From: Myxococcota bacterium
Lineage (GTDB): Bacteria; Myxococcota_A; UBA9160; SZUA-336
NCBI GenBank assembly: GCA_046757685.1
Contig: JBHHYV010000006.1
Location: 283-64,282 of the forward strand
Direction: 5' to 3'
DNA: 64,000 nucleotides
A program made the translations under genes and the position numbers. Under the pieces are notes generated by a model. That model was not told where the DNA came from. It made no database searches and saw nothing but the letters and a program-made list of their open reading frames with translations. Shown one piece after another: positions 954-51,904 of this stretch. Each line of letters opens with the position of its first letter. The first letter of the stretch is position 1.

Positions 954-1120
954 CGGGAGTCCACCTTTCGCTCGTGCGCGTGTTGGGCGCGACGCAGATC
1001 CGCCCGGCGTCGCGACCGGAGCTGCAGCAGCTCGACGGTCAATGCCAGGGCCACGACGCCATAGGCGCCCCACACGTAGAACGCATAGCCCCCCATCGAG
1101 AGGAAGTGGGCCAGGCTCAC
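950..1120 (-). CDS. ccmD: haem exporter protein CcmD
   Basis: This is the tail of track ORF 950..2053. The sequence MGGYAFYVWGAYGVVALALTVELL matches the CcmD signature MGGYAFFVW. GTG at 1120 overlaps the ccmC stop as GTGA. ATG at 1096 is an alternative start. Confidence 0.7.
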   Translation of the reverse strand: MSLAHFLSMGGYAFYVWGAYGVVALALTVELLQLRSRRRADLRRAQHAHERKVDSR

Positions 1121-1890: not shown

Positions 1891-1913
1891 CGGCTGTGGT
1901 CGGCCCGTCAGTC

Positions 1914-3301: not shown

Positions 3302-3393
3302 CCGCTGCGGCGACGCGCGGGCGGACCGCCCCCTTGCCTTGTCCGCATCGGTGACGAGAGTAGGGGTGATCCAGGAGAAAGGAGGTAGCCATC

Positions 3394-8469: not shown

Positions 8470-10469
8470 GCGGGGTGAGGCGCCCATCTCGCGGGCGGGT
8501 CTGCGTGCCGGGGCTGATGTGGGCGGGGGCCTTCGGCCTGCTGGTCGCACTGACGCTCGTGGCCGGGACTGCCTTCGCGCAGCAGATCCGCCTGGCGCGC
8601 GTGACGGAGGTGAGCGGCTACACGGAGCTGGGCCTTCGGGCCGAGAAGGACCGCCGAGACCGCAACAGCAAAGGGAGCGCGCTCCGCTCCAGCGAGCTCC
8701 GCCTCGATCAGCTGCTGCATCTCGATCTGGATGGGTATCTCTATCACCCGCGCTTCGTTCGCTTCCATGGCTCGGGCGAGCTGCACTTCTTTCAGACGCC
8801 CGTGAGCGGCGGTTCCTCCGTGCTCCGGAGCGTCGACCGGGAGCTCGCGAGTGGGAGCTGGATCCTGACCTTTCTCGAGGAGCACCCCTATGGACTGAAC
8901 GTATTCGGAAACGTGTCGGACCAGGACGTGGATGCGAGCTTCACCCCTACGTTCCTGCTCCACAACGAGCTCTTCGGGGCGACGTTCCACTTCCGCCGGG
9001 GCCCGCTGCCCTTCCAGGTCACCTACGATCAGCGTTCGCGGGCGGGTACGGGTCCCACCTCGGTAATCGACGAGGTCGGAACGGACTTCTCGGTCCGCTC
9101 CGACTACCGGATCGGGGAGAGCTCGCAGGGGGGGCTGGAGTATCGCCGCAGCGTCGACGACATCCGCCAGCAGGACCAGATCATCGACCGGAGCTCCTTC
9201 TCGGTCGACAATGTGACCTATCTCGATCCGGAGCGACGCAGGAGACTGAGAGGCAACCTTCGCTTCTTCCAGCAGGTGGACGTCAGCCGCCTCACCCGGC
9301 TCTCGGCCCTCGGCGGCCTCGACTGGCGCCACTCGAAGCGGCTGACGTCTCGCCTGAACTTGGATCTCGAGCAGACTCGCATCGCCGGTCAGCGAACGAC
9401 GAACTGGAACCTGGAGGCGGGAGCCCGCCATCAGCTCTACGAGAGCCTCGCCTCGGACCTCGCGATCTACGCTCGTCTCCAGGACGCTACGTTCGGAAGC
9501 GACAACAGCTTCGGCGGGACGCTCTCGGAGCAGTACACGAAGCGCCTTGGCGGATGGGGGCGAGTGAACCTCAGCTTGATCCCCTTCGGTCAGCTTGAGC
9601 AGATTCGTTCGAGCCAAGACACGGCTCAGGTCGTCGACGAAGGCCAGGTCCTCCAGGACGCGGTCCCGGCCGTGCTCAAGCAGCCGGATGTCCTCCCTGG
9701 ATCCATCGTCGTGACGGACGCCGCCGGGCTCATCGTCTTCCAGGAGAGCCTGGACTACGCGGTCCAGATCCGAGGAAGCCAGACCGAGATCCTGAGGCTG
9801 GCGGGCGGAGCGATCGCGAATCTCGACACGGTGCTCGTCGACTACGAGCACCGACTCCCGAGCGCGCAGGATGTCCTGCTCTCGGGGGTCAACGGCCAGC
9901 TTCGGGTCTCGCTTCCCCTCGGGATCGCGCTCTTCGGGACGTTGCTCGACCAGAATCAGCGCAAGCTCTCGGGCGACCTGACCTCCAAGCTGGAGTCGCG
10001 CAATCGCCTGTCTAGCGGCATCGAGCTCAACAGGACCTGGATGTCCGCGCGAGTCGAGGCCGAGCGAGAGACCTCGACCTTCGCCTCCTTCCGGGCGCTC
10101 TCGCAGACCCTGAGCTTGTTCACCGAGAGCGGATCGGCATGGCGGGGACGCGTTTCCGGGACTCACCGCCAGCTCCGCTATACGGACTCCGACCAGAGGA
10201 TCTCCCGCACCCTGGCCGCGGCGACCCTTCGCCGGCAGTTCTTGACCTCGGGACGCCTCGAGCTGGCGATCGACTACGAGCGAACGCGCTGGTCCGGTGG
10301 AGTCAACCCGGAGTTCAACGATGTCGATGGACTGGGTGTGAAGGCGTCCCTCGAGTGGTCGTTTCGTCGCATCACGGTCACGGTCACCGGGAATCTCAAG
10401 CGGCTCGAACGGCTGCAGCAGCGGGAGAGGCAGAATCGGATCCTTCTGCGGGTCCGGAGAGACTTCTAG
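8466..10469 (+). CDS. putative outer-membrane beta-barrel protein (porin partner of the cytochromes)
   Basis: The ATG overlaps the upstream stop (ATGA). Signal peptide ...LVAGTAFAQQ, no Cys, many short alternating polar/hydrophobic stretches, and a C-terminus ...ILLRVRRDF ending in Phe. I did not recognise a family. The call rests on composition and context. Confidence 0.55.
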   Translation: MSGVRRPSRGRVCVPGLMWAGAFGLLVALTLVAGTAFAQQIRLARVTEVSGYTELGLRAEKDRRDRNSKGSALRSSELRLDQLLHLDLDGYLYHPRFVRFHGSGELHFFQTPVSGGSSVLRSVDRELASGSWILTFLEEHPYGLNVFGNVSDQDVDASFTPTFLLHNELFGATFHFRRGPLPFQVTYDQRSRAGTGPTSVIDEVGTDFSVRSDYRIGESSQGGLEYRRSVDDIRQQDQIIDRSSFSVDNVTYLDPERRRRLRGNLRFFQQVDVSRLTRLSALGGLDWRHSKRLTSRLNLDLEQTRIAGQRTTNWNLEAGARHQLYESLASDLAIYARLQDATFGSDNSFGGTLSEQYTKRLGGWGRVNLSLIPFGQLEQIRSSQDTAQVVDEGQVLQDAVPAVLKQPDVLPGSIVVTDAAGLIVFQESLDYAVQIRGSQTEILRLAGGAIANLDTVLVDYEHRLPSAQDVLLSGVNGQLRVSLPLGIALFGTLLDQNQRKLSGDLTSKLESRNRLSSGIELNRTWMSARVEAERETSTFASFRALSQTLSLFTESGSAWRGRVSGTHRQLRYTDSDQRISRTLAAATLRRQFLTSGRLELAIDYERTRWSGGVNPEFNDVDGLGVKASLEWSFRRITVTVTGNLKRLERLQQRERQNRILLRVRRDF

Positions 10470-19584: not shown

Positions 19585-21786
19585 TTACGCCTTCTCGAGA
19601 AAGACCGGAATCGGCCCCCAGGTGGGTGCCCCGGTCGTCGCGTCGAAGAGCGCATAGGGAAGCTTCAAAGGGTTGCCACCGACCCTCTCGGTCACGACGC
19701 CCGGCGCCGAGAGACCGAAGCCCAGGGGCGCCGCCACGGAGCCCGGCGTGATGCTGCGCGTCACCACCACCCTGGCCTCGATCTCCGCGCGCGGACCTCG
19801 GATCTTGACCCGATCGCCGTGAGACATCCCCCGAGAGTGGGCATCGATGGGGTGCAGCTCGACCCACGACTCCCAGAGCACGCCGTGGGGCATTCCAGCA
19901 ATCTCCATCAGCATCGGTCGGTCCAGGACGCGCCCGCCCCGAATGGCCGGTCCGTCAAAGGGTACGAGCCAGAGCTGACGCGGCGCGAGCGCAGGAGGTC
20001 GGGCGGGCGGAGAGGACGTGACCGCTTGCCCGGAGGTCCGCGCAGCCAGCGCGCGCTGGGGCGCCAGCCACATCGCCTCTCCCGAAAGCAGCTCGCGCTT
20101 CGCAGTCTTTGCATCGACCTGTGCCAACGCGTTGCGCTGGGAGCGCTCGACCAGCTCGCCCTGCCCACGTCGCACCACGACGTCCACTGCCTTCTCCACG
20201 AGCCCCTGCATGGTCGGGGCTGGAGGAGCGAATCCGGGGCCTGCAGATCCTGTCTTCGCGAGATCGAGCAGAACGTCCTCGGGCGCGCGCGCTTCGACTA
20301 CCGGCACCATGGCGGGACGCTGAACCTGGAGCGCCGCATCGGGCACCCCCCACGCCGGCGAGGGCAGATCCCAGGACTCCAGATCCAGGAGCGTCGGTAG
20401 GGTCACGTGCGAGAGCAGCGCCGTATGAGTCTCCCGCGAAGCGAAGGTCGCCACGAAGGGCACGTGGCTTATGGCGCGGGCGATCTGGTCCTGCCCCGGA
20501 AGCTCGTGAACCAGGTTCGCCTCGATGCAGATCAGTACGTCGACGGGTGAGCGGCGGATCTCGAAGAGAGGCTGGAGGATCTCGGGGAGGCCGCCGTCCA
20601 GCGCGCCCCCCGACTCCCCCAGTGAGAGCGCGCGGGCCAGGTCGTCGAGCGGATCGCTGGCCCAGGAGAGTCCGCCTCGCTCTCGGAAGCCGCCAGTCCA
20701 CAGGTTCAGGGCCAGGGCTGCGCGAACATCGGCCGCGCCGTCGACCCGGCGCAGGAGCGCCGGACCGGGTAGCACGACTCCCGGGGCGAAGCGGCGCAGT
20801 GCGCGAGCCGCGAGCTCGAGCTCGCCGGCGCGCAGGCCCAGGTTCTCGGGTGCAAAGCGGCGCGCGAAGGTGATCGGGTCCCGGGCCTCGGGAACCCAGC
20901 GAGCGTAGCGGGCGAGAGTTGCAGAGCGCTGCGGATGCCCCTCGCTCAAGGTCTGGGCGAGACCCAGCAGGATGTCCCGCTCCTGGCCCGGAGCGCTGGG
21001 GATCCAGGCGTCGCTCTTCGCTGCGGTCGCTCCCTGGCGTGGGCCCAGGTAGAGCGTCGGTGCGGCGCCCGTGTCCGGATGCTCGCGTCGCTCGCCGTGG
21101 GCGCGCATCTGGGAGACGGGACTGCCGTCCACGTCCAAGAGCTCGTCACCCACCAGGAGCAGGGTTCCGCTGTGCGCGAGATCTACGCGCAGCCGTCCCT
21201 TCTTCGCCCCGCCGAAGAACTCGCCGGCCAGCTGGTCCAGCGCTCCTTCGACACGGAGCGGGATGTAGCGCGCCCCGGGGATCGAGCGTACCCAGGTTTC
21301 GACGAGGCGGGTTCCCAGGGAAGGGGTGCGCCCATCCACGACCGCCAGGCGATCTCCGGCCCCTGCGGCCACCAGCTTGCGGAGCTGCCCTCCAAGCAGA
21401 CCGAGGGCTTCTTCCCATGCAGCCGGGTGGCCTTCCGCCCCGGCATCGCTGCGCACCAGGGGTGTCGCCAGGCGCAGAGGATCGAAGAGCGCCTGCATCT
21501 GGGACTGGCCGGCGGCGCACAGCGAGCCCTGGCTCGCGGGATGCCAGGGAGTCCCTCGCAGTCCGACCGGGAGCTGGTCGATCTTGCGCAGCGAGAGCGA
21601 GCAGTGGTTCGGGCAGTCGCGGCAGACGCTCCGCGAGAAGCTCTCCAGGCCCGGGCCGCGCACGTCCTGGAAGCTGAGTCGGTCGACCGCATACTGGTGC
21701 AGGCGGTCGAGGAGCCAGTCGCCCCCCGACGCCGAGACACCCGCGGCACCGAGCGACTTGAGGAAGGTCCGGCGAGAGAGGGCCAT
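19585..21786 (-). CDS. Tat-exported molybdopterin-oxidoreductase-family large subunit (PsrA/QrcB/ActB1-like)
   Basis: Start taken at the internal ATG with the twin-arginine signal MALSRRTFLKSLGAAG. N-terminal Cys motif CRDCPNHC...(x24)...C (CxxCxxxC...C). About 730 aa. No in-frame stop. Confidence 0.8.
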   Translation of the reverse strand: MALSRRTFLKSLGAAGVSASGGDWLLDRLHQYAVDRLSFQDVRGPGLESFSRSVCRDCPNHCSLSLRKIDQLPVGLRGTPWHPASQGSLCAAGQSQMQALFDPLRLATPLVRSDAGAEGHPAAWEEALGLLGGQLRKLVAAGAGDRLAVVDGRTPSLGTRLVETWVRSIPGARYIPLRVEGALDQLAGEFFGGAKKGRLRVDLAHSGTLLLVGDELLDVDGSPVSQMRAHGERREHPDTGAAPTLYLGPRQGATAAKSDAWIPSAPGQERDILLGLAQTLSEGHPQRSATLARYARWVPEARDPITFARRFAPENLGLRAGELELAARALRRFAPGVVLPGPALLRRVDGAADVRAALALNLWTGGFRERGGLSWASDPLDDLARALSLGESGGALDGGLPEILQPLFEIRRSPVDVLICIEANLVHELPGQDQIARAISHVPFVATFASRETHTALLSHVTLPTLLDLESWDLPSPAWGVPDAALQVQRPAMVPVVEARAPEDVLLDLAKTGSAGPGFAPPAPTMQGLVEKAVDVVVRRGQGELVERSQRNALAQVDAKTAKRELLSGEAMWLAPQRALAARTSGQAVTSSPPARPPALAPRQLWLVPFDGPAIRGGRVLDRPMLMEIAGMPHGVLWESWVELHPIDAHSRGMSHGDRVKIRGPRAEIEARVVVTRSITPGSVAAPLGFGLSAPGVVTERVGGNPLKLPYALFDATTGAPTWGPIPVFLEKA

Positions 21787-21793
21787 CGTTCCC

Positions 21794-22393
21794 CTACCTG
21801 TGGCACAGCAGGCAGTCGACGCCTGCTCGTGGGTTTCCACTCTTGAGATGACAGCTGATGCAGCGCTCCATCCCAGAGGGACCGTTGAAGTCGATGTAGG
21901 GCCGCGAGAAGGGCACCTCGCGTTTGGCAACCTCTCCGTGACAGGTCTCGCACAGAATCTTGCCTGCCTTCACGTGGCGCCGGTGGGAGAAGTGCACGTA
22001 CTCCTCGAGCTTGTCCACGCGCTTCCAGGGGATCGGCTCGCCCTTCTCCAGGAACGCGACGAGCTTGGCCTCCTCGGGGTTGTCCCCGATGGCCTCCTCG
22101 TGGCAGTCCTCACAGACGTCGCCCGAAGGGATGGTGGCGTGGTCGGAGTCCTCGGCACCCTCGTGGCAGTCGGTGCAGGGGATCTCCTCCTCGGCTACGT
22201 GGATCTCATGAACGTAGGCGATGGGCTGCTCGACTGGGAGGCGTGCGGAGCAGCCGAGCGCGAGGAGACCGGCCAGACCCGCGATCCCCAGGACGGCTGC
22301 GCGGCGGAAGGCCCCCGATTCCGCGATCTCCGCGACTGGCGGTGAGGCGAGCGTCGAAGCGGCAGGGACGAACCAGACCCTCCGGACTCTCAC
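21794..22393 (-). CDS. pentahaem c-type cytochrome lipoprotein (ActA/QrcA-like)
   Basis: GTG start. Lipobox-like LLALGC. Five CXXCH motifs (CTDCH, CEDCH, CETCH, CISCH, CLLCH). FSHRRHV...CETCH is c3/c7-like. Confidence 0.8.
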   Translation of the reverse strand: MRVRRVWFVPAASTLASPPVAEIAESGAFRRAAVLGIAGLAGLLALGCSARLPVEQPIAYVHEIHVAEEEIPCTDCHEGAEDSDHATIPSGDVCEDCHEEAIGDNPEEAKLVAFLEKGEPIPWKRVDKLEEYVHFSHRRHVKAGKILCETCHGEVAKREVPFSRPYIDFNGPSGMERCISCHLKSGNPRAGVDCLLCHR

Positions 22394-22847: not shown

Positions 22848-23843
22848 GTGAGGGGTAGAGATACATCGACTTCCGCCACCGGGAGCGCGGGTCGCCTTCG
22901 GGTCAGGGCTCGCCGCGTGGCGAGTGTGGCGCTTCCGATCCTCACTCTGGCAGCGATCGTCGCTTGTGTGACGGCTTGGCCGACGACCGTCCCCGAGCGC
23001 CTCCACCGCATCGCGAACGTTCCGGGGGCCCAGGCCGTGGGCGCGGAGGAGTGCGGCACCTGCCACGAGGACATCGAGGGACACGCCCCGATCCCCGCCT
23101 ATCACTCGGACTGCGAGGCGTGTCATGGGGGCGGCAGCCTTCATGTCGATAGCGAGAAGCCCGCCGACATCCGGTTCCCCACCGCGGACGACTGCCTGAG
23201 CTGCCACGAGAAGGGCCGCACCACGCACATGGACTTCGCCACGGGGGAGCACTCGCGCGCGGGGCTGATCTGTGCGGACTGCCACAACCCCCACAACCGA
23301 GAGCCGCACCACGTGCGGGTTGTCCAGGCCGTCTCCTTCCCACAGATGGAGCCGAACTCGAAGCTCTGCATCGGATGCCACGCCGATGTGGCGGCGCGCC
23401 TGCACTACCCATCCCATCACCCGGTGGCCGAGGGCATGCTCTCCTGCATCGATTGCCACTCTCCCCACGAGGACCGTCGGGCTGCGCTCGGCGACAAGAC
23501 GCAGCTATGCGCAGGCTGCCACCAGGATCACGTCGGTCCCTGGATCTACGAGCATCCACCGGTGACCGAGGACTGCATGATCTGTCACAACCCGCACGGG
23601 ACCGCCGCATTCAACCTGCTCGAGACCAACGTCCCCGCGATCTGCCTCTCGTGTCATACCCCTGCGGACGATCCACACCTGCTCGAGACCGGGGATCCGG
23701 CCGCGGCGACGATCACAACGGACGCGCCGACGCTACCTGGACAGAGGATCACGGCGCTGGGGGCGTCCGCTGTCTATACACGCTGCACCGATTGCCACGG
23801 AGCGATTCACGGATCGATGCAAGACCACCATCTGTGGAGGTGA
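22848..23843 (+). CDS. decahaem c-type cytochrome, MtrA/DmsE/PioA/MtoA family
   Basis: 331 aa with exactly ten CXXCH motifs and a family-typical C-terminus (RCTDCHGAIHGS). The N-terminal signal ends in a lipobox-like IVAC. The start codon is uncertain. Confidence 0.85.
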   Translation: MRGRDTSTSATGSAGRLRVRARRVASVALPILTLAAIVACVTAWPTTVPERLHRIANVPGAQAVGAEECGTCHEDIEGHAPIPAYHSDCEACHGGGSLHVDSEKPADIRFPTADDCLSCHEKGRTTHMDFATGEHSRAGLICADCHNPHNREPHHVRVVQAVSFPQMEPNSKLCIGCHADVAARLHYPSHHPVAEGMLSCIDCHSPHEDRRAALGDKTQLCAGCHQDHVGPWIYEHPPVTEDCMICHNPHGTAAFNLLETNVPAICLSCHTPADDPHLLETGDPAAATITTDAPTLPGQRITALGASAVYTRCTDCHGAIHGSMQDHHLWR

Positions 23844-23848
23844 GATCA

Positions 23849-26143
23849 ATGGCGTCGAAACTTGCGGGCACGATCGGGTGGGTCGTCGTCGGGCTGTGGG
23901 TGCTGCCTTCCGCGGCGATGGGCGATGGGGATTCGTCGCTTCGCTGGTCTGCGACCAGCGAGATGCGGTTCACCGACATCCGTGCGCCCTCCGACGAGGA
24001 CTTCCGCACCGGCTTCCTGGACAAGTACCAGTTCAGCGCGGACAAGAACAACCAGTTCCCGTTCGAGATCGCGCTCAGCCGCGCGGCCCTCGACTGGTTC
24101 GGGGCCGCCGAGACCCCGCGCATCCAGTTCCGCTTTCGGAGCCCCTCCTCGGACCTCTCGGTCTCGGGCGACGGCCCCTCGACGGGGGAGTTCTTCCTGA
24201 GCCAGCGCGGCGACCTCTTTGCGCGTTTTCCGGGCCTGGCGGCGGACTTGGTGTACCGGCGCAGCCGCATCGACGAGCTGCGCCTCTTCACGAATCCTAC
24301 GGGTCTGGGGAGCGCCCCCTTCACGCTCTTCAATGACGGCACGAGTGGTCGGCGCCGCTTCTTCGTCCGCCGCGAGCAGGTGGGAGGTGCGATCCACCTG
24401 AGACCCTGCGACCTGCTCTGCGACCAGCCGAAGGGCTGGCTCTCCGAGCTGAACCTGAGGGGCTCCTGGGAGGATCGATCGGGTCGGCGACAGCTGCGCT
24501 TCATGCTCGGCGGCGGCGACCTCATCGGAGGGGGCGCCCAGACCAGTCGCTGGCGCGCGGTCGAGCAGGATCTGGACCAGCAGTCCGTGAAGCTCGGCAG
24601 CAGCCTGGTGTTCTCTCCGGGCGGCCTGTTCACCCTGGAGCTCGCCTTCGATCACGAGCGCTTCCGCAACCGCTCCGGTCCCTTCCTGCAGAGTCAGCTC
24701 ACGGCCATGGACTCCAATATCGACTCGGCGTCGGGCGTCCTGGGACTTGGCGCGGGAACCGCGGGCCTGCAGACGCTGGGCTTCATTCCCGAGACGAGCC
24801 GGAGCACCGGTACGGCGCGTTTCCAGACCCGCCTCTGGGACCGCCGCATCGCGATCCACGGAGGGTTCCAGCTCAGCAAGCTCAAGCAGATCGGTAAGCT
24901 CTCGCCCCTCCAGAACCTGGCCGGGCTCGATCGCAACAACATCTTCTTCTACTCCGGGAATCTCGCCGCCAGAGGCCGGATCACCGAGATCGCCTCGGTC
25001 AACGCGTTCGTTCGCTTCGACAATCGCCGCAACCGGATCGACCGCTCGACGGTGCTCTTCAACTCGAGGGATACGAACTTCAACACCCAGTTCGACCCCT
25101 TCGTGGCAGGGCTGCGGAACATCGATACCGGCGCCGAGATCGTCCTCAGGCCGGTCCGGGCCTTCCGCTTCACCGTTGGAAGCCGCGCCCACTTCACGAA
25201 TCGCGCCCTCGACTTCCTGGACAAGCCCCTGTCGAGTGAGGGCATCCTGCCCTCGGTGACCGTCATCGACGACGACACCGTGACGTACACGGTCTACGTC
25301 AAGTCGAATGCGCGACCGATCTCGGGTCTCAATCTCTCGAGCGAGCTGGGGCTGCGCGAATCGCCGAAGACGGGCTACATCCGCGAGCTCGACGACGTGC
25401 GCTACGGGAAGGGACGCGCCTCCTACGCGCTTCCACTGTCCCGTCCCGTGACTCTCAGCGCCTTCGCCAACGGAGAGCGGGGCGAGAACAACGACTTCAA
25501 GATGCTGGGCGAGACCGCGGGGACCAGAGATCGAGGCTTCGACCAGGTGCGCTACTCCTACGGGGTCACGCTCACCGGCTCGCCGACCGATGAGCTCTCG
25601 CTCTTCGGGAGCTTCTTCCAGTCTCGCGATGCCCAGGACTTCAATCTCGTCCGGGCCACGATTCCACGCATGGATGGAAGGGACCCGACCGTCCTGGACC
25701 TCGACTTCTTCATCGATGCGCCCCTCGAGTTCCGGACGGACCAGACCAACCTGGTCATCGGCGGGAACGCCCAGCTGACTCGCCAGGCCAGTGCCAACGT
25801 CTACTACTCGTTCACCCGCTCCAAGTCGCGCTTCGACTCGATCAATACGACGTCAGCGACCATCGCGAATGCCAGCCGGATTCGCAGCGATATCCAGAGC
25901 ATCGGGACGGGGCTCAGCTTCCACCTCCGGGACGGTGCGGATCTGTCGCTCGGCTATCGCTACGACGCCTACCACGACCGTGCCGGGGTCAACGGGTCGG
26001 CCGGCTCTGCGACCCCCTTCCGGCTCTCGACCGGACGCCACTTCGTTACGCTGGGCGTGACGCTGACGGACGAGTTCTTCGGAGGCAAACCACCGCCGGC
26101 GGGCACTGCGAGAGCCGGGGGTCGCCGTCTCGCGCTGCGCTGA
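23849..26143 (+). CDS. putative MtrB/PioB-like outer-membrane beta-barrel
   Basis: The ATG is 5 nt after the decahaem stop. Signal peptide ...VLPSAAMG, 764 aa, no Cys, rich in Gly/Asp/Arg/aromatic alternating segments. Size and position match decahaem-associated barrels. Family not verified. Confidence 0.6.
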   Translation: MASKLAGTIGWVVVGLWVLPSAAMGDGDSSLRWSATSEMRFTDIRAPSDEDFRTGFLDKYQFSADKNNQFPFEIALSRAALDWFGAAETPRIQFRFRSPSSDLSVSGDGPSTGEFFLSQRGDLFARFPGLAADLVYRRSRIDELRLFTNPTGLGSAPFTLFNDGTSGRRRFFVRREQVGGAIHLRPCDLLCDQPKGWLSELNLRGSWEDRSGRRQLRFMLGGGDLIGGGAQTSRWRAVEQDLDQQSVKLGSSLVFSPGGLFTLELAFDHERFRNRSGPFLQSQLTAMDSNIDSASGVLGLGAGTAGLQTLGFIPETSRSTGTARFQTRLWDRRIAIHGGFQLSKLKQIGKLSPLQNLAGLDRNNIFFYSGNLAARGRITEIASVNAFVRFDNRRNRIDRSTVLFNSRDTNFNTQFDPFVAGLRNIDTGAEIVLRPVRAFRFTVGSRAHFTNRALDFLDKPLSSEGILPSVTVIDDDTVTYTVYVKSNARPISGLNLSSELGLRESPKTGYIRELDDVRYGKGRASYALPLSRPVTLSAFANGERGENNDFKMLGETAGTRDRGFDQVRYSYGVTLTGSPTDELSLFGSFFQSRDAQDFNLVRATIPRMDGRDPTVLDLDFFIDAPLEFRTDQTNLVIGGNAQLTRQASANVYYSFTRSKSRFDSINTTSATIANASRIRSDIQSIGTGLSFHLRDGADLSLGYRYDAYHDRAGVNGSAGSATPFRLSTGRHFVTLGVTLTDEFFGGKPPPAGTARAGGRRLALR

Positions 26144-38101: not shown

Positions 38102-40573
38102 TCAGTAGAGGATCTGCTCGCGCTCGAGCGCGGCGATCTCGTCGAGCGAGTAGCCCAGCAGGTCCCGCAGGATCTCGACGCTGTCGGCACCGAGCAACGG
38201 GGCCGGGGCGCGCACGCCGTTGGGGCCGCGGGCGAGGAGCCACGGGATGCCCGCGTGGGTCCGCACGCCCACCTCAGGATGGTCGAGCCGGGTCAGGAAG
38301 CCCCGCGCCTCGAGCTGGGGATCCCGGCTCAGGTCCAGCGTCGTGAGCGAGGGGAACGCGGCGACCCCGGCCGCCTGCAGCCTGTGCGTCGCCTCCCAGC
38401 GGTCTTGCGTTCGGGTCCACTGGGTGATCTGGCGCTCGATCTCGTCCTCGTGCGCCTTGCGCGAGGCGGCGCTGGCAAAGCGCTCGTCGCGCCCGAGCGC
38501 GGGATCGATGACGTCGCAGAGGGCCGACCACTCCGCATTGCTGGCGCAGGCGATCGAGATCCAGGTGTCGTCTCCCCGGCAGGGGAAGCAGTCGTGGGGA
38601 GCCATCCAGGGGTCCCGGTTCCCCACGCGCTCGGGCTCGCGGCCGTTGATCGCGAACTCCATCCAGCCCTCGGCCACCAGCGCCGCGCTGGCCTCCCAGA
38701 GCGACACATCGATGTACTCGCCCCTGCCGGTGCGCTCGCGGGCCACGAGCGCGGCGCAGATCGCCATTGCCGCAGTGATGCCTGCCGTGGGATCGCCGAG
38801 CGAGATCCCGAGCTCCCTGGGCTCGCCGCCCCGGTAGCCGGTCAGGGACGAGAGACCGCAGAGCGGTCCGATCGCCGGACCGTACGCCATGTAGTCGCGG
38901 CTGGGGCCCGTCTGGCCGTAGCCCGAGATCGATGCCGCGATCAGATCGGGCCGCAGCGCGCGTAGCGCCGGGTAGCCCAGACCGAGCCGCTCCATCACGC
39001 CGGTTGCGAAGTTGTCGACGACCACGTCACAGCGGGCGATCAGCCGCTTGGCGACCTCGACGGCGCCGGGCTGCCCGAGGTTGAGCCGAAGGCTCCGCTT
39101 GCCTTGGTTCCACTGGTTGAAGTAGCCCGAGGCATTGAGCGATGGCTCCACATCGGGAGCGAAGATCGGCAGGCGCCTCCCCAGGTCGGGCCGCGCGTAC
39201 GACTCGATCTTGATGACGTCCGCCCCCAAGTGGGCGAGCTGCATGGCGCAGAAGGGGCCGGCCCAGACCCAGGAGAGGTCGGCCACGCGCACTCCCTCCA
39301 GCGGCCGCCCGGAGAGCGGCGGTCGCGAGGTCGCTCGCCGCCCTGCGGCTGCCGCTGGGGGTCGAGGGTCCGCGGCGGGTGCGACTGCGGTAGAGGGGGG
39401 CGGCCGGGGCGGGCTCTCCGAGGGCTCGAGCTCTCGCAGCTTCGCGTCGTGCTCGCCCAGCCGGGGCGCGGGAGCCCGGATCCGCCAGGCTCCGTTCGAC
39501 AGTCGATAGGGCGCCCCCGGATGCGTGACCGTTCCCGCGACGGGGTGATCCACGGGCACGAAGAAGCCGCGCTCCGCCAAGTGCCGCTGCACTGCGAGAT
39601 CGGCCATCCCGAACACCGGCGCGAAGCAGATGCGGCGCTTCTGGCCCTCGCGATAGAGGTCGTCGACCTTCCAGCGCCCGATCCACTCCTGCACGAAGGT
39701 CTCCAGCAGGTCTGCGTTCTCGAGGCGTCCGCCGAAGTCCCGGAAGACCTCGAGCTCGGACCAGTCGGGATGCCCCATCAGGTCGACCAGCCGCTCCCAC
39801 TGGTCCTGCTCGATCGTGCACAGGAAGATCAGGCCGTCCTGGCAGCGGAAGATCCGCCAGGGGTTCAGGGCGCGCCGCCCGAGCCGCGTCGGAACCAGCC
39901 CGGCGTAGGTCGTCGTGACGAGGGCCGCCTCGAGGAGAGAGGCGATGACGGCCTGGTTCGACAGGTCGATCTGCTCTCCGACCCCGGTGCGGCGCGCCCG
40001 CAGGTAGGCCGCCAGCGCCGCCATCGCCCCGGTGAGCCCACTCTGGAAGTCCGCCTGGTGGCCGTAGGCCTTCAGCGGCGGGCTGTCGACCTCCTCCGAG
40101 GCGCCTGGCGTCAGGTACGCCCAGCCGCCGGCGTTCGTCGTCGTGAGCTCCTCGGCCCGGTAGTCGCGATAGGGTCCCGTCCTCCCGAAGGGCGTGATCG
40201 AGCACACGACCAGCTCGGGGCGCAGCCGCCAGAGCGCCGGGCCATCGAGACGCAAGGCATCGGCGCGGGCGGGCGGCAGGTTATGGACCAGGATGTCGCT
40301 GCGCTCGATCCAGCGGTCGAGCGTCTCGCGATCCTCGCGCGCGTCGAGATCGAGGGTCACTCCCCGCTTGTTGGTGTTCAGGTAGAGGAAGAGCCCGCTC
40401 TGCTCGGGGTCCGGCGTGCCCCCCGGAAAGGGCCCGCGGCGACGCGCGCGCTCGCCCTGCGGAGGCTCGACCTTGACCACGCTCGCTCCAAGGTCGGCCA
40501 TCAGCTTGGTCGCATAGGCCGCCGAGACCAGCTCGCCCAGCTCCAGCACGCGCACACCCTCGAGGCCGCTCAT
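38102..40573 (-). CDS. tandem fusion of two family III (CaiB/BaiF) CoA-transferase domains
   Basis: Two complete copies of the family N-terminus, LEGVRVLELGELVSAAYATKLMADLGASVVKVE and LEGVRVADLSWVWAGPFCAMQLAHLGADVIKIE. They are joined by a Pro/Ala-rich linker (EPSESPPRPPPSTAVAPAADPRPPAAAAG). Confidence 0.85.
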   Translation of the reverse strand: MSGLEGVRVLELGELVSAAYATKLMADLGASVVKVEPPQGERARRRGPFPGGTPDPEQSGLFLYLNTNKRGVTLDLDAREDRETLDRWIERSDILVHNLPPARADALRLDGPALWRLRPELVVCSITPFGRTGPYRDYRAEELTTTNAGGWAYLTPGASEEVDSPPLKAYGHQADFQSGLTGAMAALAAYLRARRTGVGEQIDLSNQAVIASLLEAALVTTTYAGLVPTRLGRRALNPWRIFRCQDGLIFLCTIEQDQWERLVDLMGHPDWSELEVFRDFGGRLENADLLETFVQEWIGRWKVDDLYREGQKRRICFAPVFGMADLAVQRHLAERGFFVPVDHPVAGTVTHPGAPYRLSNGAWRIRAPAPRLGEHDAKLRELEPSESPPRPPPSTAVAPAADPRPPAAAAGRRATSRPPLSGRPLEGVRVADLSWVWAGPFCAMQLAHLGADVIKIESYARPDLGRRLPIFAPDVEPSLNASGYFNQWNQGKRSLRLNLGQPGAVEVAKRLIARCDVVVDNFATGVMERLGLGYPALRALRPDLIAASISGYGQTGPSRDYMAYGPAIGPLCGLSSLTGYRGGEPRELGISLGDPTAGITAAMAICAALVARERTGRGEYIDVSLWEASAALVAEGWMEFAINGREPERVGNRDPWMAPHDCFPCRGDDTWISIACASNAEWSALCDVIDPALGRDERFASAASRKAHEDEIERQITQWTRTQDRWEATHRLQAAGVAAFPSLTTLDLSRDPQLEARGFLTRLDHPEVGVRTHAGIPWLLARGPNGVRAPAPLLGADSVEILRDLLGYSLDEIAALEREQILY

Positions 40574-40601
40574 CGCTCGGCTTCCTGCGCCAGGGCCCCG
40601 G

Positions 40602-40823
40602 CTAGCGACCTTCACCGGGCCGGCCGGTGGCCATGCAGGCCATGTCGGCGATCGAGTACTCCTCGGCCAGGTGCTCCCGATCCGCCAGGCGCCGGTCGAG
40701 CACTGCGTGGAGTCCCTCCGCTTCGCTTCGGTAGCGCTGGAGGGGGTACTCGAGCCCCATCTCCTCGAGGGCGATCGAGATCTTCCAGCCGTTGGGGGTC
40801 GGCCAGTAGTACAGGTCGATCAT
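40602..40823 (-). pseudogene. remnant of a YfcG/Nu-class-like glutathione S-transferase (internal deletion and 3' truncation)
   Basis: The N-terminus MIDLYYWPTPNGWKISIALEEMGLEY is joined directly to the C-terminal-domain segment QRYRSEAEGLHAVLDRRLADREHLAEEYSIADMAC. The entire middle of the fold is missing. Confidence 0.6.
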
Positions 40824-41581: not shown

Positions 41582-42331
41582 CTACTCGAGCAGCTCGGGC
41601 AGGATCTGGCTGAGGGAGCCCCGAAGCACCGCGTCGGCGAGCGCATCCATCTCGGTCGGCTCGGCGTTGGCGATCACGATCTTCGATCCCGCCTGCCGGG
41701 CCAGCGGGACCACGCCGGCGATGGGGAACACGGCGAGCGTGGACCCGACTGCGAGCAGCAGATCGCTGGCCTCGGCGGCCCGTTCGGCCCGTTCCAGGTC
41801 CTCGGGCACGAGCCCCTGCCCGAAGGAGATCGTCGCGGACTTGAGGATCCCTCCGCAGCTCGGGCACGGCGGGTCGTCCTCTCCCGCCCGCACCCGCTCC
41901 AGGGCGGCCTCCATCGGACCGCGTTCCCCGCACGTCATGCAGACGACCTCGCGCAGGGTCCCGTGGATCTCGATGACCCGATCGGGGGAGGTCCCCGCCT
42001 GCTGGTGCAGGCCGTCCACGTTCTGGGTGATCAGCGTGTGCAGCGTGCCGCGCCGCTCGAGCGCTACGATCGCCCGGTGTCCCGCATTGGGCTCCCTGCG
42101 GCGGGCCAGCGACTGGAGCCGGCTCCGCCAGGCTCTGCGGCGGACCTCCGGGTCGGACAGGTAGTGGTCGAGGGTCGCCATCTTCTCGGCCTCGGGATTT
42201 CGGGTCCAGAGCCCCTGCGGCCCCCGAAAGTCCGGGATCCCGGAGTCGGTCGAGATCCCGGCGCCGCTCAGCACGACGACCCGTTGGGCGGCGTCGATCC
42301 AGCCCCGCACCCGGCGCAGCTCGCTCTCCAT
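41582..42331 (-). CDS. cobB: NAD-dependent protein deacylase (Sir2 family)
   Basis: VVVLSGAGISTDSGIPDFRGPQGLW, ITQNVDGLH, and a Zn ribbon (CxxC...CPSCGG). Confidence 0.85.
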   Translation of the reverse strand: MESELRRVRGWIDAAQRVVVLSGAGISTDSGIPDFRGPQGLWTRNPEAEKMATLDHYLSDPEVRRRAWRSRLQSLARRREPNAGHRAIVALERRGTLHTLITQNVDGLHQQAGTSPDRVIEIHGTLREVVCMTCGERGPMEAALERVRAGEDDPPCPSCGGILKSATISFGQGLVPEDLERAERAAEASDLLLAVGSTLAVFPIAGVVPLARQAGSKIVIANAEPTEMDALADAVLRGSLSQILPELLE

Positions 42332-42449
42332 TCCCGGTGGGCCTCCCCTGGCGCCAGTATCGCAAGCTGGCGCCGATCCGGCTCGGCGGGATGGGGCTCC
42401 CGGCGGCCGCGGGTTGACGGTGGGGGCGCTTCGATCACACTGCAGGCCG

Positions 42450-43712
42450 ATGACGGAGTCGCTCGGCATCGCGCAGCGCCTGGCCTTTCTGGACTTCGGG
42501 GAGGGCGACCGGCGGGCGCTCGCGTCGCTGCGACCGCTGCTCGAGGCGAATGCGGAGCGGCTGGTCGCCCACTTCTACCGCCACCTGCTCTCCTTCGAGC
42601 CGACCCGCCGGCTGCTGCGGGATCCCGAGGTCAAGGAGCGGCTGTTGACCCTCCAGCGCGACTACCTGCTGAGCCTGGCCGGACCTCGGATCGACGAGGC
42701 GTTCGCCGCGGACCGGCTGCGGATCGGCCGGACCCACGAGCGGGTCGGGCTCGACGTGCAGTGGTACCTGGGTGCCTACTCGCTCTACTTCTCGCTCCTG
42801 CTGCCGCTGATCCACGAGCGCTACGAGGGGGATGCTCCGCGCTGCGAGCGGACCATCGCCGCGCTCGTGAAGCTCCTGATTCTCGACGCCTCGCTCGCGA
42901 TGGGCGCGTACATCGAGGACCGCCAGTCGGCGCTCGAGGAGGCCAACCGCGAGCTGGCCGAGATCGGGCGCAGCCTCGAGCGCCAGATCGAGGCGGCCGG
43001 GCTCGCGCTCTCCAAGACCACCCGTCGCGCGCGCGCCGCCGAGGAGCTGGCCTCGATCGCGACGCTGGTGGCTGGGCTCGCTCACGAGATCGGAACCCCG
43101 ATGAGCGTGATCCAGGGGCACGCCGAGCTGCTGGAGTCGGCCGTCTCGGAGCCTCGCGCCCGTGAGCGGCTCGCGATCATCCGGGGCCAGGTCGATCGCA
43201 TCTCGCGGATCATCCAGACGCTGCTCCGGGTGGCACGCCCCCACCCGCCGGTGCGGACCCGCTTGTCGCTGGACGACCTGATCCATACGACGCTGAGCTT
43301 CGTGCGCGAGAAGCTCCAGCGGAGACAGATCCAGGTGGATTGCGAGCTCGATGCTCCTACCTCGATTTCCGGAGACGCCGACCGGATTCAGCAGCTATTC
43401 CTGAACCTCTTCCTGAATGCTGCGGATGCCATGCCCCAGGGTGGGACCCTGCGCGTGAGAGCGCGGCAGGTCGACGACTGCGTCGAGATCCGGATCTCGG
43501 ACACGGGCCGAGGGATTCCCCCCAAGGACCTCGAGCACGTCTTCGAGCCCTTCTACACCACCAAGCCCGCGGGCCAGGGGAGCGGCCTGGGGCTGGTGGT
43601 CGCGAGCGGAATCGTCCTCGACCACGACGGCGAGATCGACGTGACCAGCGAGGAGGGCAAGGGCACCGAGTTCCGCATCCAGCTGCCGACTCGGGACGCC
43701 GCCGCCGGCTAG
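42450..43712 (+). CDS. globin-coupled sensor histidine kinase
   Basis: Protoglobin-like N-terminus (LAFLDFGEGDRRAL...FYRHLL...RIGRTHERVGLDVQWYLGAY), a coiled linker, HisKA (LAHEIGTPMSVIQGHAELL) and HATPase (DTGRGI...GSGLGL). Confidence 0.8.
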   Translation: MTESLGIAQRLAFLDFGEGDRRALASLRPLLEANAERLVAHFYRHLLSFEPTRRLLRDPEVKERLLTLQRDYLLSLAGPRIDEAFAADRLRIGRTHERVGLDVQWYLGAYSLYFSLLLPLIHERYEGDAPRCERTIAALVKLLILDASLAMGAYIEDRQSALEEANRELAEIGRSLERQIEAAGLALSKTTRRARAAEELASIATLVAGLAHEIGTPMSVIQGHAELLESAVSEPRARERLAIIRGQVDRISRIIQTLLRVARPHPPVRTRLSLDDLIHTTLSFVREKLQRRQIQVDCELDAPTSISGDADRIQQLFLNLFLNAADAMPQGGTLRVRARQVDDCVEIRISDTGRGIPPKDLEHVFEPFYTTKPAGQGSGLGLVVASGIVLDHDGEIDVTSEEGKGTEFRIQLPTRDAAAG

Positions 43713-48147: not shown

Positions 48148-48980
48148 GCGCCGGTCAGCCCGCCGTCGACGACCAGTGTCTCGCCGGTCACGTAGCTCGA
48201 CTCCGGCGAGAGCAGGAAGAGCGCCGCGTAGGCGACCTCCCAGCCCGTTCCCTGCCGGCCGAGTGGTACGGGAGTCCTTGCCCGGCTCGGTCGCCCGCGC
48301 GTGGCGAGCCGGCCGAGTGGGGTGTCGATCAGGCCGGGTACCACCACGTTCGCGCGCAGCCCGCGGCGTCCGCCGGCCCGGGCGACCTCGCGGCAGAGCG
48401 CCTCCACTCCGGCCTTCGAGGCGTCGTAGGCCGGAATGCGCGATCCCGCCGAGCGCCCTGCGACCGAGCTGATGAACACGATGGAGCTCGACGGCGCCAG
48501 GAGCCCCAGCGCGGCCCGTGCGACCAGGAAGTGAGCGCGCAGGTTGACCGCGAAGGTCTGGTCCCACTCCTCCAGCGTCGTTCCCTCGAGGCCGCGGCCG
48601 ATGCCGATTCCGACGTTCAGGACGACCCCGTCCAGGCCTCCCAGCTCGGCTGCCGCCGCCGCGGGAAGCCCCTCGCACTCGGCCGGGCGCGACACGTCGA
48701 CCTGGATCCAGCGGCCCTGACCGCCCGCCTTCTCGATCCTTGCCAGCGTCTCGCGCGCCGAGTCCGGGTCGCGATCCGCGCATGCGACCGCCGCGCCCTC
48801 GCGAGCCGCGAGCAGCGCGATCGCGCGCCCGTTCCCGATCGGCGGGTCCGCCTCGTCCGAGGGCCGCGTACCCGCCCCCACCACCAGGATCCGGCGCCCC
48901 TCGAGCCTGCCGCGTCCGGGGGCCAGCCCCAGGGCCTCGGCAGGCAAGGGCGGGACCTCGGGCCGTTCGCGAGGGGACAC
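48144..48980 (-). CDS. SDR-family oxidoreductase
   Basis: ILVVGAGTR...IGNGRAIA, NVGIG, and YDASKAG (YxxxK). Confidence 0.8.
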   Translation of the reverse strand: MSPRERPEVPPLPAEALGLAPGRGRLEGRRILVVGAGTRPSDEADPPIGNGRAIALLAAREGAAVACADRDPDSARETLARIEKAGGQGRWIQVDVSRPAECEGLPAAAAAELGGLDGVVLNVGIGIGRGLEGTTLEEWDQTFAVNLRAHFLVARAALGLLAPSSSIVFISSVAGRSAGSRIPAYDASKAGVEALCREVARAGGRRGLRANVVVPGLIDTPLGRLATRGRPSRARTPVPLGRQGTGWEVAYAALFLLSPESSYVTGETLVVDGGLTGA

Positions 48981-49059
48981 TCTGCCAGTCTATCGCGCGC
49001 GCCCGCCCTGAGTCTCGCGCGCCGCCCTCGCGGGCGGGGGGAGGCTAGACTCGCCGACC

Positions 49060-50034
49060 ATGCGGCCCGCTCCAGAGCCCGTCCGCGCCTACCTGCTCGA
49101 TCTACAGGAGCGGATCTGCGCCTCGTTCGAGTCTGCCGACGGGGCGGGGCGCTTTCGAGAGGATCCCGTCTCGGGGCCGGGCCCGTCCCTGTCGCGGCCG
49201 CGCGTGCTCGAGGATGGAGCGGTCTTCGAGAGGGCGGCCGTGCACTTCACCCACTCCGCGGGGAGCCGATTGCCCGGAGCCGCAAGCGAGCGTCACCCCG
49301 AGCTCGCCGGCCGGCCCTTCGAGGCCGTCTCGCTCTCGCTGATCACCCATCCGCGAAATCCCTACGTGCCCACCTCGCACGCGAACCTGCGGTTCTTCCA
49401 GGGCTCGCCGGGGCGGGGCGAGGCGCCGGCCGGGGCCGGCTGGTGGTTCGGGGGCGGCTTCGACCTGACGCCCTTCTATCCCTTCGAGGAGGACGTGATC
49501 GCCTGGCATCGCGCCGCCCGCGAGGCGTGTGCCGAGCTCGGGGAAGGGGCCTATGCCGAGCTCAAGCGGGCCTGCGACGAGTACTTCCGGCTGCCCCACC
49601 GCGACGAGGCGCGCGGGGTCGGCGGCCTCTTCTTCGACGACCTCGCCGCCCCTGGCTTCGACCGCTGCTTCGCCTTCGTCCGCAGCGTGGGGGAGCACTA
49701 TCTCTCGGCCTACGGCGAGATCGTGGCGCGCCGGCGCGCCACGCCCTACGGCGAGCGCGAGCGGACCTTCCAGCTGCACCGTCGCGGGCGCTACGTGGAG
49801 TTCAACCTCCTCTACGACCGCGGCACCCGCTACGGGCTGCAGTCGGGTCGCCGTATCGAGGCGGTGCTGGCGTCACTGCCCCCCCGCGTGGCCTGGAGCT
49901 ACGACTGGAAGCCGGACCCGGGAACGCCGGAGGGGGAGCTGGTCGAGCGATTCCTGCAGCCGCGCGACTGGCTCTCCGAGGAGGCGGCGAGGCGCCCCTC
50001 CGCGACGGGTCCGAAGCGGGCGCGCGAGGTATGA
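49060..50034 (+). CDS. hemF: oxygen-dependent coproporphyrinogen III oxidase
   Basis: HPRNPYVPTSHANLRFF, WWFGGGFDLTPFYPFEED, GVGGLFFDDL and RRGRYVEFNLLYDRGT are hallmark HemF motifs. Confidence 0.9.
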   Translation: MRPAPEPVRAYLLDLQERICASFESADGAGRFREDPVSGPGPSLSRPRVLEDGAVFERAAVHFTHSAGSRLPGAASERHPELAGRPFEAVSLSLITHPRNPYVPTSHANLRFFQGSPGRGEAPAGAGWWFGGGFDLTPFYPFEEDVIAWHRAAREACAELGEGAYAELKRACDEYFRLPHRDEARGVGGLFFDDLAAPGFDRCFAFVRSVGEHYLSAYGEIVARRRATPYGERERTFQLHRRGRYVEFNLLYDRGTRYGLQSGRRIEAVLASLPPRVAWSYDWKPDPGTPEGELVERFLQPRDWLSEEAARRPSATGPKRAREV

Positions 50035-50041
50035 TGGGGCC

Positions 50042-50692
50042 ATGAGCCAACCACCCCGGATCGACCCCGACCAGATTCCCGATGCCATCTGGAAGCAGAT
50101 GAACATCAGCCGCGAGCGCTTTGCCGAGATCCGCGAGGAGATGCGCGCGCGGGAGGCGAGGGCGCCCCAGGTCGGCAGCGTTGCCTTCGACTTCGAGCTG
50201 GAACGGCTCGCACCCGACGGGGCCCGCACGCGAGAGTCCACGCGGCTCTCCGACTCGCGGGGACGCCCCGTCGCGCTGGTCTTCGGATCCTACACCTGAC
50301 CGCCGTTCCGGGCTCAGGCGGTCCGCCTGAACCAGATCTACCGTCGCCATCGCGAGCGCGTCGACTTCTTCTGCATCTACATCCAGGAGGCGCATCCCGA
50401 CGACGGCTGGCAGGTGCTGATGAACCTGGACCAGAAGGTGGTCTTCGATCAGCCCACCCAGGTCGAGGAGCGAGCGGAGATCGCCGCCGCCTGCAGGCTC
50501 GATCTGCACTTCGAGATGCCCATGCTCCTCGATCGCATGACCAACGAGGTCGATGCCGCCTACGCCGCCCTTCCCGAGCGCCTCTACGTGATCGATCGCG
50601 AGGGCCGCATCGCCTACCGGGGGGACATGGGTCCCTGGGGCTTCGATCCCGAGAGCTGGGAGCGCGCGATCGAGGCCGAGACCGCCGCCTGA
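50042..50692 (+). CDS. iodothyronine-deiodinase-family thioredoxin-fold selenoprotein (in-frame UGA = Sec at 50297-50299)
   Basis: The end of track ORF ..50299 and ORF 50414..50692 are in the same frame, with no other stop between them. Read-through gives VALVFGSYT-U-PPFRAQAV...VDFFCIYIQEAHPDDGWQV. This matches the deiodinase active site FGS(A)T-U-PPF and the (L)VYIDEAHPSDGW motif. Confidence 0.7.
50311..50333 (+). promoter_or_regulatory. candidate bacterial SECIS hairpin
   Basis: GG-C-UCAGGCG-GUC-CGCCUGA-A-CC: a 7-bp upper stem, one C-A mismatch and 2 further bp. It starts 11 nt after the UGA, and the apical region reads GGUC(C). Confidence 0.5.
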
Positions 50693-50707
50693 GAGCCCGG
50701 TCCGCCC

Positions 50708-51904
50708 TCAGGCGGCGACGAGCTCGAGCGGGATCTTCGAGTAGGCACGCATCAGGAAGCTCGGATGCAGCGGCAGCGGCTCGGAGCTCGCGAGCTGGAA
50801 GTCGCGCGTGCGCTCCAGGAGCGTGCGAATCGCCACCCGCGCTTCGAGTCGCGCCAGGTTCGATCCCAGGCAGAAGTGGGGGCCGAAGCCGAACGCCAGG
50901 TGGGGATTGGGCTGGCGCGCCACCTCGAAGGCGTCGGGCTCCTCGAAGACCGAGGCGTCGCGATTGGCCGAGCCGAGCCACTGGAGCACGAACGAATCTG
51001 CCTCGAGCCGTACCCCGTGCAGCTCGACCGGTCCGGTCACGCAGCGCGCGTCGGCCTGGATGGGGGATGCGAAGCGCAGCACCTCGTCGATCGCCGTGGG
51101 CAGAAGGCCCGGATCCACCCGGAGCTTCGCCAGGGCCTCGGGATGCGCGAGCAGCTCGAGCGTCGCGTTTCCGATCAACGTGGTGGTGGTCTCGTTTCCC
51201 GCCACGAGCAGCAGGATCAGCATCTGCAGCAGCTCGGGGAAGCTCAGGCGAGAGCCCTCGAGCTCTGCCCGGACGAGGCCCGTGAGCAGGTCGTCCCTGG
51301 GGGTTGCGCGGCGCTCGGCGGCCAGCGTGGTGAAGTAGTCGCTCATCTCCGAGACGATCACGCGGTCGCGTTCGACCGCCTCGGGGGAGGGTGGGCTCAG
51401 GAGTCCCGCACCCAGGTTCTCGATCAGCGCGTCCGACCACGAACGGAAGAGCTCCCGGTCGGCGAGGGGAACGCCGATCATCTCGGCGATCACCATCATC
51501 GGGAGCGGGTAGGTGAGGGCCTCGACCCAGTCGACGATCCCCGTCTCCAGCGCCCGGTCGACGAGCTCCTCGGCGATCTCGACCATCCTCGGCTCGAGCC
51601 TGCGAACGATGCGCGGCGTGAAGGCCTGGTTGACGAGCGACCGCAGGCGGGTGTGCTCGGGGCCGTCCTGTCCGAGCATGCTCTGCGGGAGATCGTCGGC
51701 TCCCCTCGCATCGACGAGGTCGGGAAAGCGATTCGAGTACGTCTCGGCGTCCTTGAGCATGCCCAGGACGTCGTCGTAGCGGAAGACCGAGGCGGCGTTC
51801 AGCCCCTCGTGTACGAAGACGGGGTGGTCTCGGCGAGCCTGCGCGTAGCTCGGAAAGGGGTTCCGGCGCAGGGCTTCGTCGAGGGGATCGAACGAGAAGG
51901 CCAT
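50708..51904 (-). CDS. cytochrome P450
   Basis: Haem-thiolate loop FGFGPHFCLGSNLARLE, EVLRF (ExxR) and the I-helix LLVAGNETTT. Confidence 0.9.
   Translation of the reverse strand: MAFSFDPLDEALRRNPFPSYAQARRDHPVFVHEGLNAASVFRYDDVLGMLKDAETYSNRFPDLVDARGADDLPQSMLGQDGPEHTRLRSLVNQAFTPRIVRRLEPRMVEIAEELVDRALETGIVDWVEALTYPLPMMVIAEMIGVPLADRELFRSWSDALIENLGAGLLSPPSPEAVERDRVIVSEMSDYFTTLAAERRATPRDDLLTGLVRAELEGSRLSFPELLQMLILLLVAGNETTTTLIGNATLELLAHPEALAKLRVDPGLLPTAIDEVLRFASPIQADARCVTGPVELHGVRLEADSFVLQWLGSANRDASVFEEPDAFEVARQPNPHLAFGFGPHFCLGSNLARLEARVAIRTLLERTRDFQLASSEPLPLHPSFLMRAYSKIPLELVAA

Follow-up and report, generated by a model that had tools for sequence, protein, structure and literature searches.

Bacterial deiodinase-like proteins were reported in 2005 from the Sargasso Sea metagenome, both with selenocysteine (Sec) and with cysteine in the active site and together with a Sec insertion sequence (SECIS) (Zhang, Fomenko & Gladyshev, Genome Biol 6:R37; PMC1088965). 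The Global Ocean Sampling (GOS) data set of 2008 contained 22 Sec sequences of the family (PMC2398784), which is listed again in reviews from 2022 and 2026 and which occurs mainly in environmental and marine bacteria. The subject of this article is a gene of this kind at positions 50042-50692 of a 64,000-nucleotide stretch of DNA from a Myxococcota bacterium (GenBank assembly GCA_046757685.1, contig JBHHYV010000006.1, positions 283 to 64,282 of the forward strand). The whole stretch is called the window in the following, and all coordinates refer to it unless another locus is named. The gene and the codon on which its reading depends are:

50042-50692, + strand: complete predicted gene for a deiodinase-like selenoprotein, which read-through translation gives as 216 residues with Sec as residue 86
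50297-50299, + strand: predicted Sec codon, a TGA in frame that corresponds to U86 of the motif FGSYT-U-PPF

The reading frame begins with the ATG at 50042, ends with the TGA at 50690-50692 and contains only one internal TGA, that at 50297-50299, in DNA with a GC content of 69%. A preliminary description of the stretch had noted that this TGA splits the open reading frame and that reading through it yields one protein of 216 residues; re-translation gives the same result. The protein contains PVALVFGSYT-U-PPFRAQAVRLNQIY and, further downstream, the block DFFCIYIQEAHPDDGWQV. We consider it highly probable (about 0.9) that the stretch 50042-50692 forms a single gene, whose product is a soluble selenoenzyme with a thioredoxin fold and belongs to the deiodinase-like proteins of bacteria. 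The N-terminus is hydrophilic, the maximum of the Kyte-Doolittle hydropathy over 19 residues is 0.85, and the hydropathy scan predicts neither a membrane segment nor an N-terminal anchor in the protein, which in this respect differs from the animal deiodinases Dio1-3. A hydrophobic N-terminal segment recalling the membrane anchor of the animal enzymes is found in the Cys-form homologues P0037, P0038, P0098 and P0103.

The assignment to the deiodinase family, already proposed in the preliminary description, is borne out by profile and by structure. With U replaced by C, the protein matches Pfam T4_deiodinase (PF00837) over profile positions 101-229 of 237 with 106.8 bits (gathering score 27; E 1.4e-30). 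The only sequence matches in the PDB are mouse Dio3 (4TR3, E 1e-23) and Dio2 (9H48, E 1e-19), and the alignment with Dio3 runs continuously, with one gap of three residues, across the insertion that is specific to deiodinases (loop-D). The AlphaFold model of the Cys homologue P0002, which is 56% identical to the window protein (pLDDT 92.4, pTM 0.89), has Dio2 (9H48) and Dio3 (4TR3) as its best structural matches (TM 0.74-0.78, normalised to target length), followed by oxidoreductases of the ResA/TlpA type and peroxiredoxins. Among the NCBIfam models, NF038285 ("deiodinase family protein", a hypothetical equivalog, deiodinase_rel) ranks first, with E 3.6e-54 over residues 40-210. It should be noted that the score of 184.5 is below the 250-bit cutoff and that only profile positions 174-340 of 347 are matched; this model therefore describes a longer, related protein.

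The likeness to Dio1-3 extends from the thioredoxin-fold core with the deiodinase insertion to the active site FGS-x-T-U-PPF and to the blocks YI-x-EAHP-x-DGW and ERLYVI, which the window protein has in common with them. In the paper on the Dio2 structure, a relay is described that consists of Ser (Sec-3), Thr (Sec-1), Tyr (+27), Glu (+30), His (+32) and a distal His, with a Trp stacking at Sec+37 (PMC11592359). The window protein has equivalents of all these residues except the distal His, namely S83, T85, Y113, E116, H118 and W123 around U86, spaced as they are in Dio2 and Dio3, and every one of the 31 aligned homologues keeps Y113, E116, H118 and W123. Cys151, on the other hand, is a feature of the bacterial family (kept in 27 of the 31 homologues); the deiodinases have no Cys at this position.

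A scan of one genome per species gave 585 relatives, of which the 80 most similar were compared at the level of the locus. All 80 have a TGA within [FL]GS[YF]T-*-PP[FY]. They span at least six phyla, the Alphaproteobacteria (mainly Rhodospirillaceae) being accompanied by Myxococcota, Beta- and "Delta"-proteobacteria, Chloroflexota, Planctomycetota, Acidobacteriota and others, and the same codon is TGA also in the loci L083 and L084. In an alignment of 19 full-length homologues the Sec column is occupied by Cys (16), Ala (2) or Trp (1). The statement of the preliminary description that the UGA lies exactly at the Sec/Cys position thus agrees with both sets of relatives: Cys or TGA is aligned with the codon, and there is no gap. 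The two records with Ala, P0006 (FGSYT-A-PPF) and P0009 (FGSYT-A-TPF), would, if the Ala is real, be paralogues that have lost catalysis or act in a different way. The reviews of 2022 and 2026 assign the motif "UxxC" to the family, whereas the window gene and all its 80 relatives read U-P-P-F/Y and lack a Cys at +3; no motif for the family appears in the GOS table of 2008 (PMC2398784). Many database entries are truncated: among the 120 best homologues, 88 are C-terminal fragments of 119-134 residues that start just past the UGA column, which reads as the signature of gene callers halting at the TGA.

Downstream of the codon lies a hairpin, of which two extents have to be distinguished:

50311-50333, + strand: candidate SECIS hairpin as first described, GGCUCAGGCG-GUC-CGCCUGAACC, beginning 11 nt past the UGA
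50314-50330, + strand: conserved SECIS core, stem 50314-50320 with 50324-50330, loop G50321-U50322-C50323

The hairpin as first described has nine pairs and one C.A mismatch (50313/50331), with a calculated folding energy of -12.4 kcal/mol. When the columns are numbered from the U of the UGA (column 1), 65 sequences including that of the window share a main hairpin type, with stem columns 17-23/29-35 and a pentaloop N-G-U/G-N-C, in which the G at column 25 (50321 in the window) is invariant. The five inner pairs (columns 19-23/29-33) are standard pairs in about 99% of the cells, column pair 18/34 in 59%. Changes on both sides of a pair were observed in 48 cells as compared with 9.4 in shuffles, and the covariation score of 0.381 (0.129 in shuffles) was reached by none of 500 shuffles and fell to 0.07 or less when the 3' partners were slid by 1-3 columns. 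A second hairpin type, present in 12 sequences (L054, L056, L057, L060, L062, L071-L073, L075, L077, L078 and L080) from Planctomycetota, Acidobacteriota, some "Delta"-proteobacteria and Chloroflexota, is shifted 3 nt upstream (loop GGY, stem formed by columns 14-20/24-30, in the stretch of 48 nt counted from the TGA); it is paired in 97.6% and has a covariation score of 0.753.

In the light of this comparison the hairpin of the preliminary description keeps its fold, its position and its spacing of 11 nt from the UGA and loses its ends. The two outermost pairs are formed in only 67% and 42% of the family sequences, and the pair G50320-C50324, which closes the GUC triloop, is missing even in the closest relative, L084, both bases belonging to the pentaloop in the family; the conserved element is therefore 50314-50330. 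The resemblance of the apical GGUC to the SECIS of Escherichia coli K-12 fdhF, also pointed out earlier, holds: in both cases a hairpin follows a few nucleotides past the UGA with GGUC at its apex. This does not mean that the two elements are the same. In the window the loop is 2 nt further from the UGA (+24 to +27 versus +22 to +25 in fdhF), the upper stem lacks the bulged U and there is a C.A mismatch lower down, and the loop consensus of the family is N-G-U/G-N-C rather than GGUC. In the fdhF element G23 and U24 as well as the bulged U17 have roles in SelB binding.

The two arms of the stem consist of the Gln92-Ala93 and the Arg95-Leu96 codons (50312-50332, residues 91-97), and compensation is therefore seen also at the level of the protein. 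For example, residues 92 and 96 change together as Gln..Leu (CAG/CUG), His..Met (CAU/AUG), His..Val (CAC/GUG), Lys..Leu (AAG/CUU) or Gly..Leu (GGG/CUC), and replacement of Ala93 by Thr or Ser is accompanied by synonymous changes in the codon for Arg95. Within the family the RNA structure thus appears to dictate the protein sequence at residues 92-96. Over the stretch 91-97 the Cys forms are far more variable than the Sec forms, and in three independent Cys-form genes (L081, L087 and L088, with TGT or TGC) the hairpin is absent, 2-4 of the five core positions being able to pair. Rfam gave only noise, both with gathering thresholds for the whole window and with permissive ones for 50200-50450, and none of its models detects a SECIS here. 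The comparison supports the view that the hairpin is a functional-looking bacterial SECIS. Its location within the open reading frame is that of the bacterial type, in contrast to the element of the animal deiodinases in the 3' untranslated region. What has been found here otherwise agrees with the bacterial family as described: the match to PF00837, an in-frame UGA where homologues have Cys, and a SECIS with a small, G-containing apical loop. SECIS covariation, two hairpin architectures and adjacency to selA-selB-selC are not mentioned in the available portions of the published accounts.

Several observations weigh against this picture. Taken by itself, the hairpin is unremarkable in GC-rich DNA: its z is -0.76 relative to dinucleotide shuffles (61-nt context), and its folding is equalled or bettered by about 1% of the 23-mers in the window; its case therefore rests on the comparison with relatives. 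Pfam and NCBIfam scans of about 50 open reading frames found no selA, selB or selD in the window, tblastn with SelA and SelB from relatives found no selA or selB there, and ARAGORN found no tRNA genes, including tRNA-Sec, in the 64 kb. From conservation only, therefore, we infer that the source genome holds the Sec machinery and that Sec would be inserted at the UGA. The genes around the homologues give little guidance, in that clustering of 1829 flanking open reading frames yielded no cluster present in more than 6 of 81 loci, the largest being a generic short-chain dehydrogenase/reductase (SDR). A review describes the function of the bacterial family as unknown, with no member characterised (PMC13188914). 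As regards a deiodinase-like substrate, the residue that clamps the thyronine carboxylate (Arg275 in Dio3, Lys241 in Dio2) aligns with Met196, at a position occupied by P, M, A, V or D in the family, and the distal His of the relay (Dio3 His219, Dio2 His182), which is not conserved, aligns with Pro138/Gln140.

By analogy with the established bacterial SelB mechanism we infer the following course of events. With the ribosome at the UGA, the downstream mRNA would fold as a SECIS with the core 50314-50330, its loop G-U at a distance of 25-26 nt from the U of the UGA. SelB carrying GTP and Sec-tRNA(Sec) would bind the hairpin and deliver selenocysteine in place of termination, the product being a protein of 216 residues whose Sec86 is placed where helix alpha1 begins. 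In this protein Sec86 would act as the nucleophile, helped by the proton relay of the animal deiodinases (S83, T85, Y113, E116 and H118) and with W123 stacking. The selenolate would attack an electrophilic atom of a small substrate, and a thiol, perhaps that of Cys151 or of a reductant of the thioredoxin or glutathione type, would then resolve the selenenyl intermediate. The chemistry we favour, tentatively and at somewhat less than even odds, is a reductive dehalogenation of a halogenated phenolic compound, since the protein has kept both the insertion and the relay that are specific to deiodinases. We do not expect it to act on thyroid hormone.

A role as peroxidase or disulfide reductase is nearly as likely. 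The gene would then be a genuine selenoprotein gene and its product an enzyme of the peroxiredoxin or thiol-disulfide oxidoreductase type, acting on a peroxide or disulfide rather than as a dehalogenase, and we give this explanation less than an even chance. The protein matches Pfam AhpC-TSA (PF00578) with 33.5 bits (cutoff 26) and, also weakly, Redoxin; the ResA, TlpA and peroxiredoxin structures come directly after Dio2 and Dio3; the deiodinases themselves have been called peroxiredoxin-like (PMC11592359); a general redox function was proposed by the authors of 2005 (PMC1088965); and the thyronine-binding Arg/Lys is not conserved. It should be noted, however, that the AhpC-TSA score is far below that of the deiodinase match and probably reflects the shared fold, that the insertion and the Y-E-H...W relay, which mark deiodinases as opposed to peroxiredoxins, are invariant in the family, and that the window protein has no UxxC or CxxU pair. 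Hydrogen peroxide made by the product of the neighbouring hemF gene might supply the substrate of such an enzyme, but the linkage to hemF is limited to one lineage (see below).

Much less survives of the explanations in which the codon does not specify Sec. That UGA is decoded as Trp, Gly or Cys, be it through a reassigned code or through near-cognate read-through independent of a SECIS, is very improbable. It was suggested by the database entry P0003, the homologue that shows W at the codon; however, this record is not reproduced under translation table 11, and the DNA of the locus carries the TGA and the hairpin. In the window 29 of the 48 genes supported by Pfam end in TGA, and UGA is therefore not a sense codon in the genetic code of the organism. 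Moreover, relatives have the genes for Sec insertion directly beside the deiodinase-like gene. These neighbourhoods, in some Alphaproteobacteria, are, in the coordinates of the respective locus:

L048, 6001-10115: Sec-gene neighbourhood
L046, 12-4122: Sec-gene neighbourhood
L028, 2259-6594: Sec-gene neighbourhood
L033, 1162-6519: Sec-gene neighbourhood

L046 and L048 have the deiodinase-like gene first, followed by selA (TIGR00474, E 2e-181), selB (TIGR00475, E 2e-131) and selC; L028 has the same set of genes arranged divergently, and L033 likewise carries selA and selB beside the deiodinase-like gene. The tRNA-Sec gene is less than 4 kb away in L028, L046 and L048. The deiodinase-like gene of L046 and L048, being immediately upstream and on the same strand as the others, looks like the first gene of a Sec operon.

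Even less credit can be given to the TGA as a true stop, which would leave either a pseudogene or two small proteins (85 residues, and about 92-130 residues from an internal start). In favour of this one could cite the missing Sec machinery in the 64-kb window and the annotation of locus L084 (Logan SRR8302209), in which gene callers recognise two open reading frames, one of 85 residues and a T4_deiodinase fragment of 110 residues. The latter, together with the C-terminal pieces that make up 88 of 120 homologues, is rather what the preliminary description had anticipated, namely that standard gene callers would annotate fragments. The selenoprotein genes of the window and of L084 align without gaps at a dS of about 0.65. 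The dN/dS ratio, 0.19 over codons 1-85 and 0.21 over codons 87-216, indicates equal purifying selection on either side of the codon in one frame; L084 retains the TGA, and its core stem differs by a single A-to-G replacement that leaves a G.U pair. Therefore one protein has been maintained across the UGA, which neither a pseudogene nor two separate genes nor a sequencing error would account for. In addition, the catalytic motif FGSYT-x-PPF straddles the codon, the TGA is common to all 80 loci across phyla, the hairpin downstream of it covaries, and there is no conserved start codon after it, the called starts of the C-terminal fragments being variable. Finally, an error of sequencing or assembly for TGC or TGT, with the gene simply being the Cys form like the homologues with about 55% identity, is hardly credible, as the codon is TGA also in the independent assembly L084 and in all of the 80 nearest homologues from genomes, which excludes an error, and as the window has the SECIS hairpin that the Cys forms lack.

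Upstream of the selenoprotein gene lies:

49060-50034, + strand: hemF, oxygen-dependent coproporphyrinogen III oxidase (Pfam Coprogen_oxidas, E 1e-108; NCBIfam NF003727, 377 bits, cutoff 297)

The named homologues of this HemF are all from Myxococcota, and that of L084 is 83% identical. Between the end of hemF and the ATG of the selenoprotein gene on the same strand there is a gap of 7 nt, and no promoter-like or terminator-like sites were found in 48800-51000; co-transcription of the two genes in the lineage of the window is therefore plausible. L084 has the same junction within the same gene order (SIR2, ADH, sulfatase, PIG-L, SDR, hemF, then P450, Na/Ca exchanger and AIRC). The close linkage, from which the preliminary description had concluded that the two genes are probably co-transcribed, is thus real and shared by L084; it is absent, by tblastn of HemF, from all 80 other loci. 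Since the juxtaposition recurs in only one close relative, it carries little functional weight, and hemF was rejected as a functional partner.

The screen of the window for further in-frame TGA codons with coding-like flanks left only that at 50297 as giving a sensible protein, and thus no second selenoprotein. The molybdopterin oxidoreductase gene 19588-21930 (- strand) was considered as a candidate and rejected: its N-terminus, where a Tat signal and also a Cys-rich motif are found, is uninterrupted. This Tat-signal molybdopterin-type subunit belongs to a respiratory region, 4716-27913, with at least eight genes for multihaem c-type cytochromes (Paired_CXXCH, cytochrome c7/c3/c554, MtrC-like), two NHL-repeat beta-propeller proteins, two 4Fe-4S/NrfD modules and a cytochrome b, which together look like a system for extracellular or alternative-complex-III-type electron transfer. 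Interspersed with the multihaem cytochrome genes are two open reading frames, 7947-10466 (+) and 23375-26140 (+), of 840 and 922 residues without a Pfam match at E<=1e-6, which may not be real genes because their GC3 is below that of the neighbouring genes. The cytochrome c maturation genes at 486-3391 (- strand; CcmE, CcmB and an ABC ATPase, probably CcmA) fit the many c-type cytochromes of the window and hemF. The gene at 42165-43709 (+) encodes a sensor histidine kinase whose N-terminal domain is a protoglobin (haem-based gas sensor); its neighbours are a SIR2-family gene and one with a CBS domain. The open reading frame of 905 residues at 38105-40819 (-) contains two tandem CoA-transferase family III domains (E 2.5e-201) and is either a fusion or a stop-to-stop segment covering two genes.

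The gene at 50042-50692 is a previously unannotated member of a family known since 2005. Its annotation changes from two fragments or nothing to one 216-residue selenoenzyme, and the result implies that the source organism uses selenocysteine; its nearest genome homologues (the best 80 of 585) are uniformly Sec forms. With a covarying SECIS of two architectures that shapes the protein, the adjacency to selA-selB-selC and an invariant relay without the thyronine clamp, the function of the family becomes more approachable experimentally. That the gene heads a selA-selB-selC cluster in some Rhodospirillaceae suggests that it may be the main reason why these bacteria keep the Sec machinery. A joint reading, in which this retention goes together with members of the family being thiol-dependent reductive dehalogenases of natural iodinated or brominated phenolics, is on present evidence unlikely, though by no means remote. 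If it were true, aerobic bacteria of the sea and the soil would possess a non-corrinoid, selenium-based route of dehalogenation, and thyroid-hormone deiodination would have its evolutionary source in the bacterial family.

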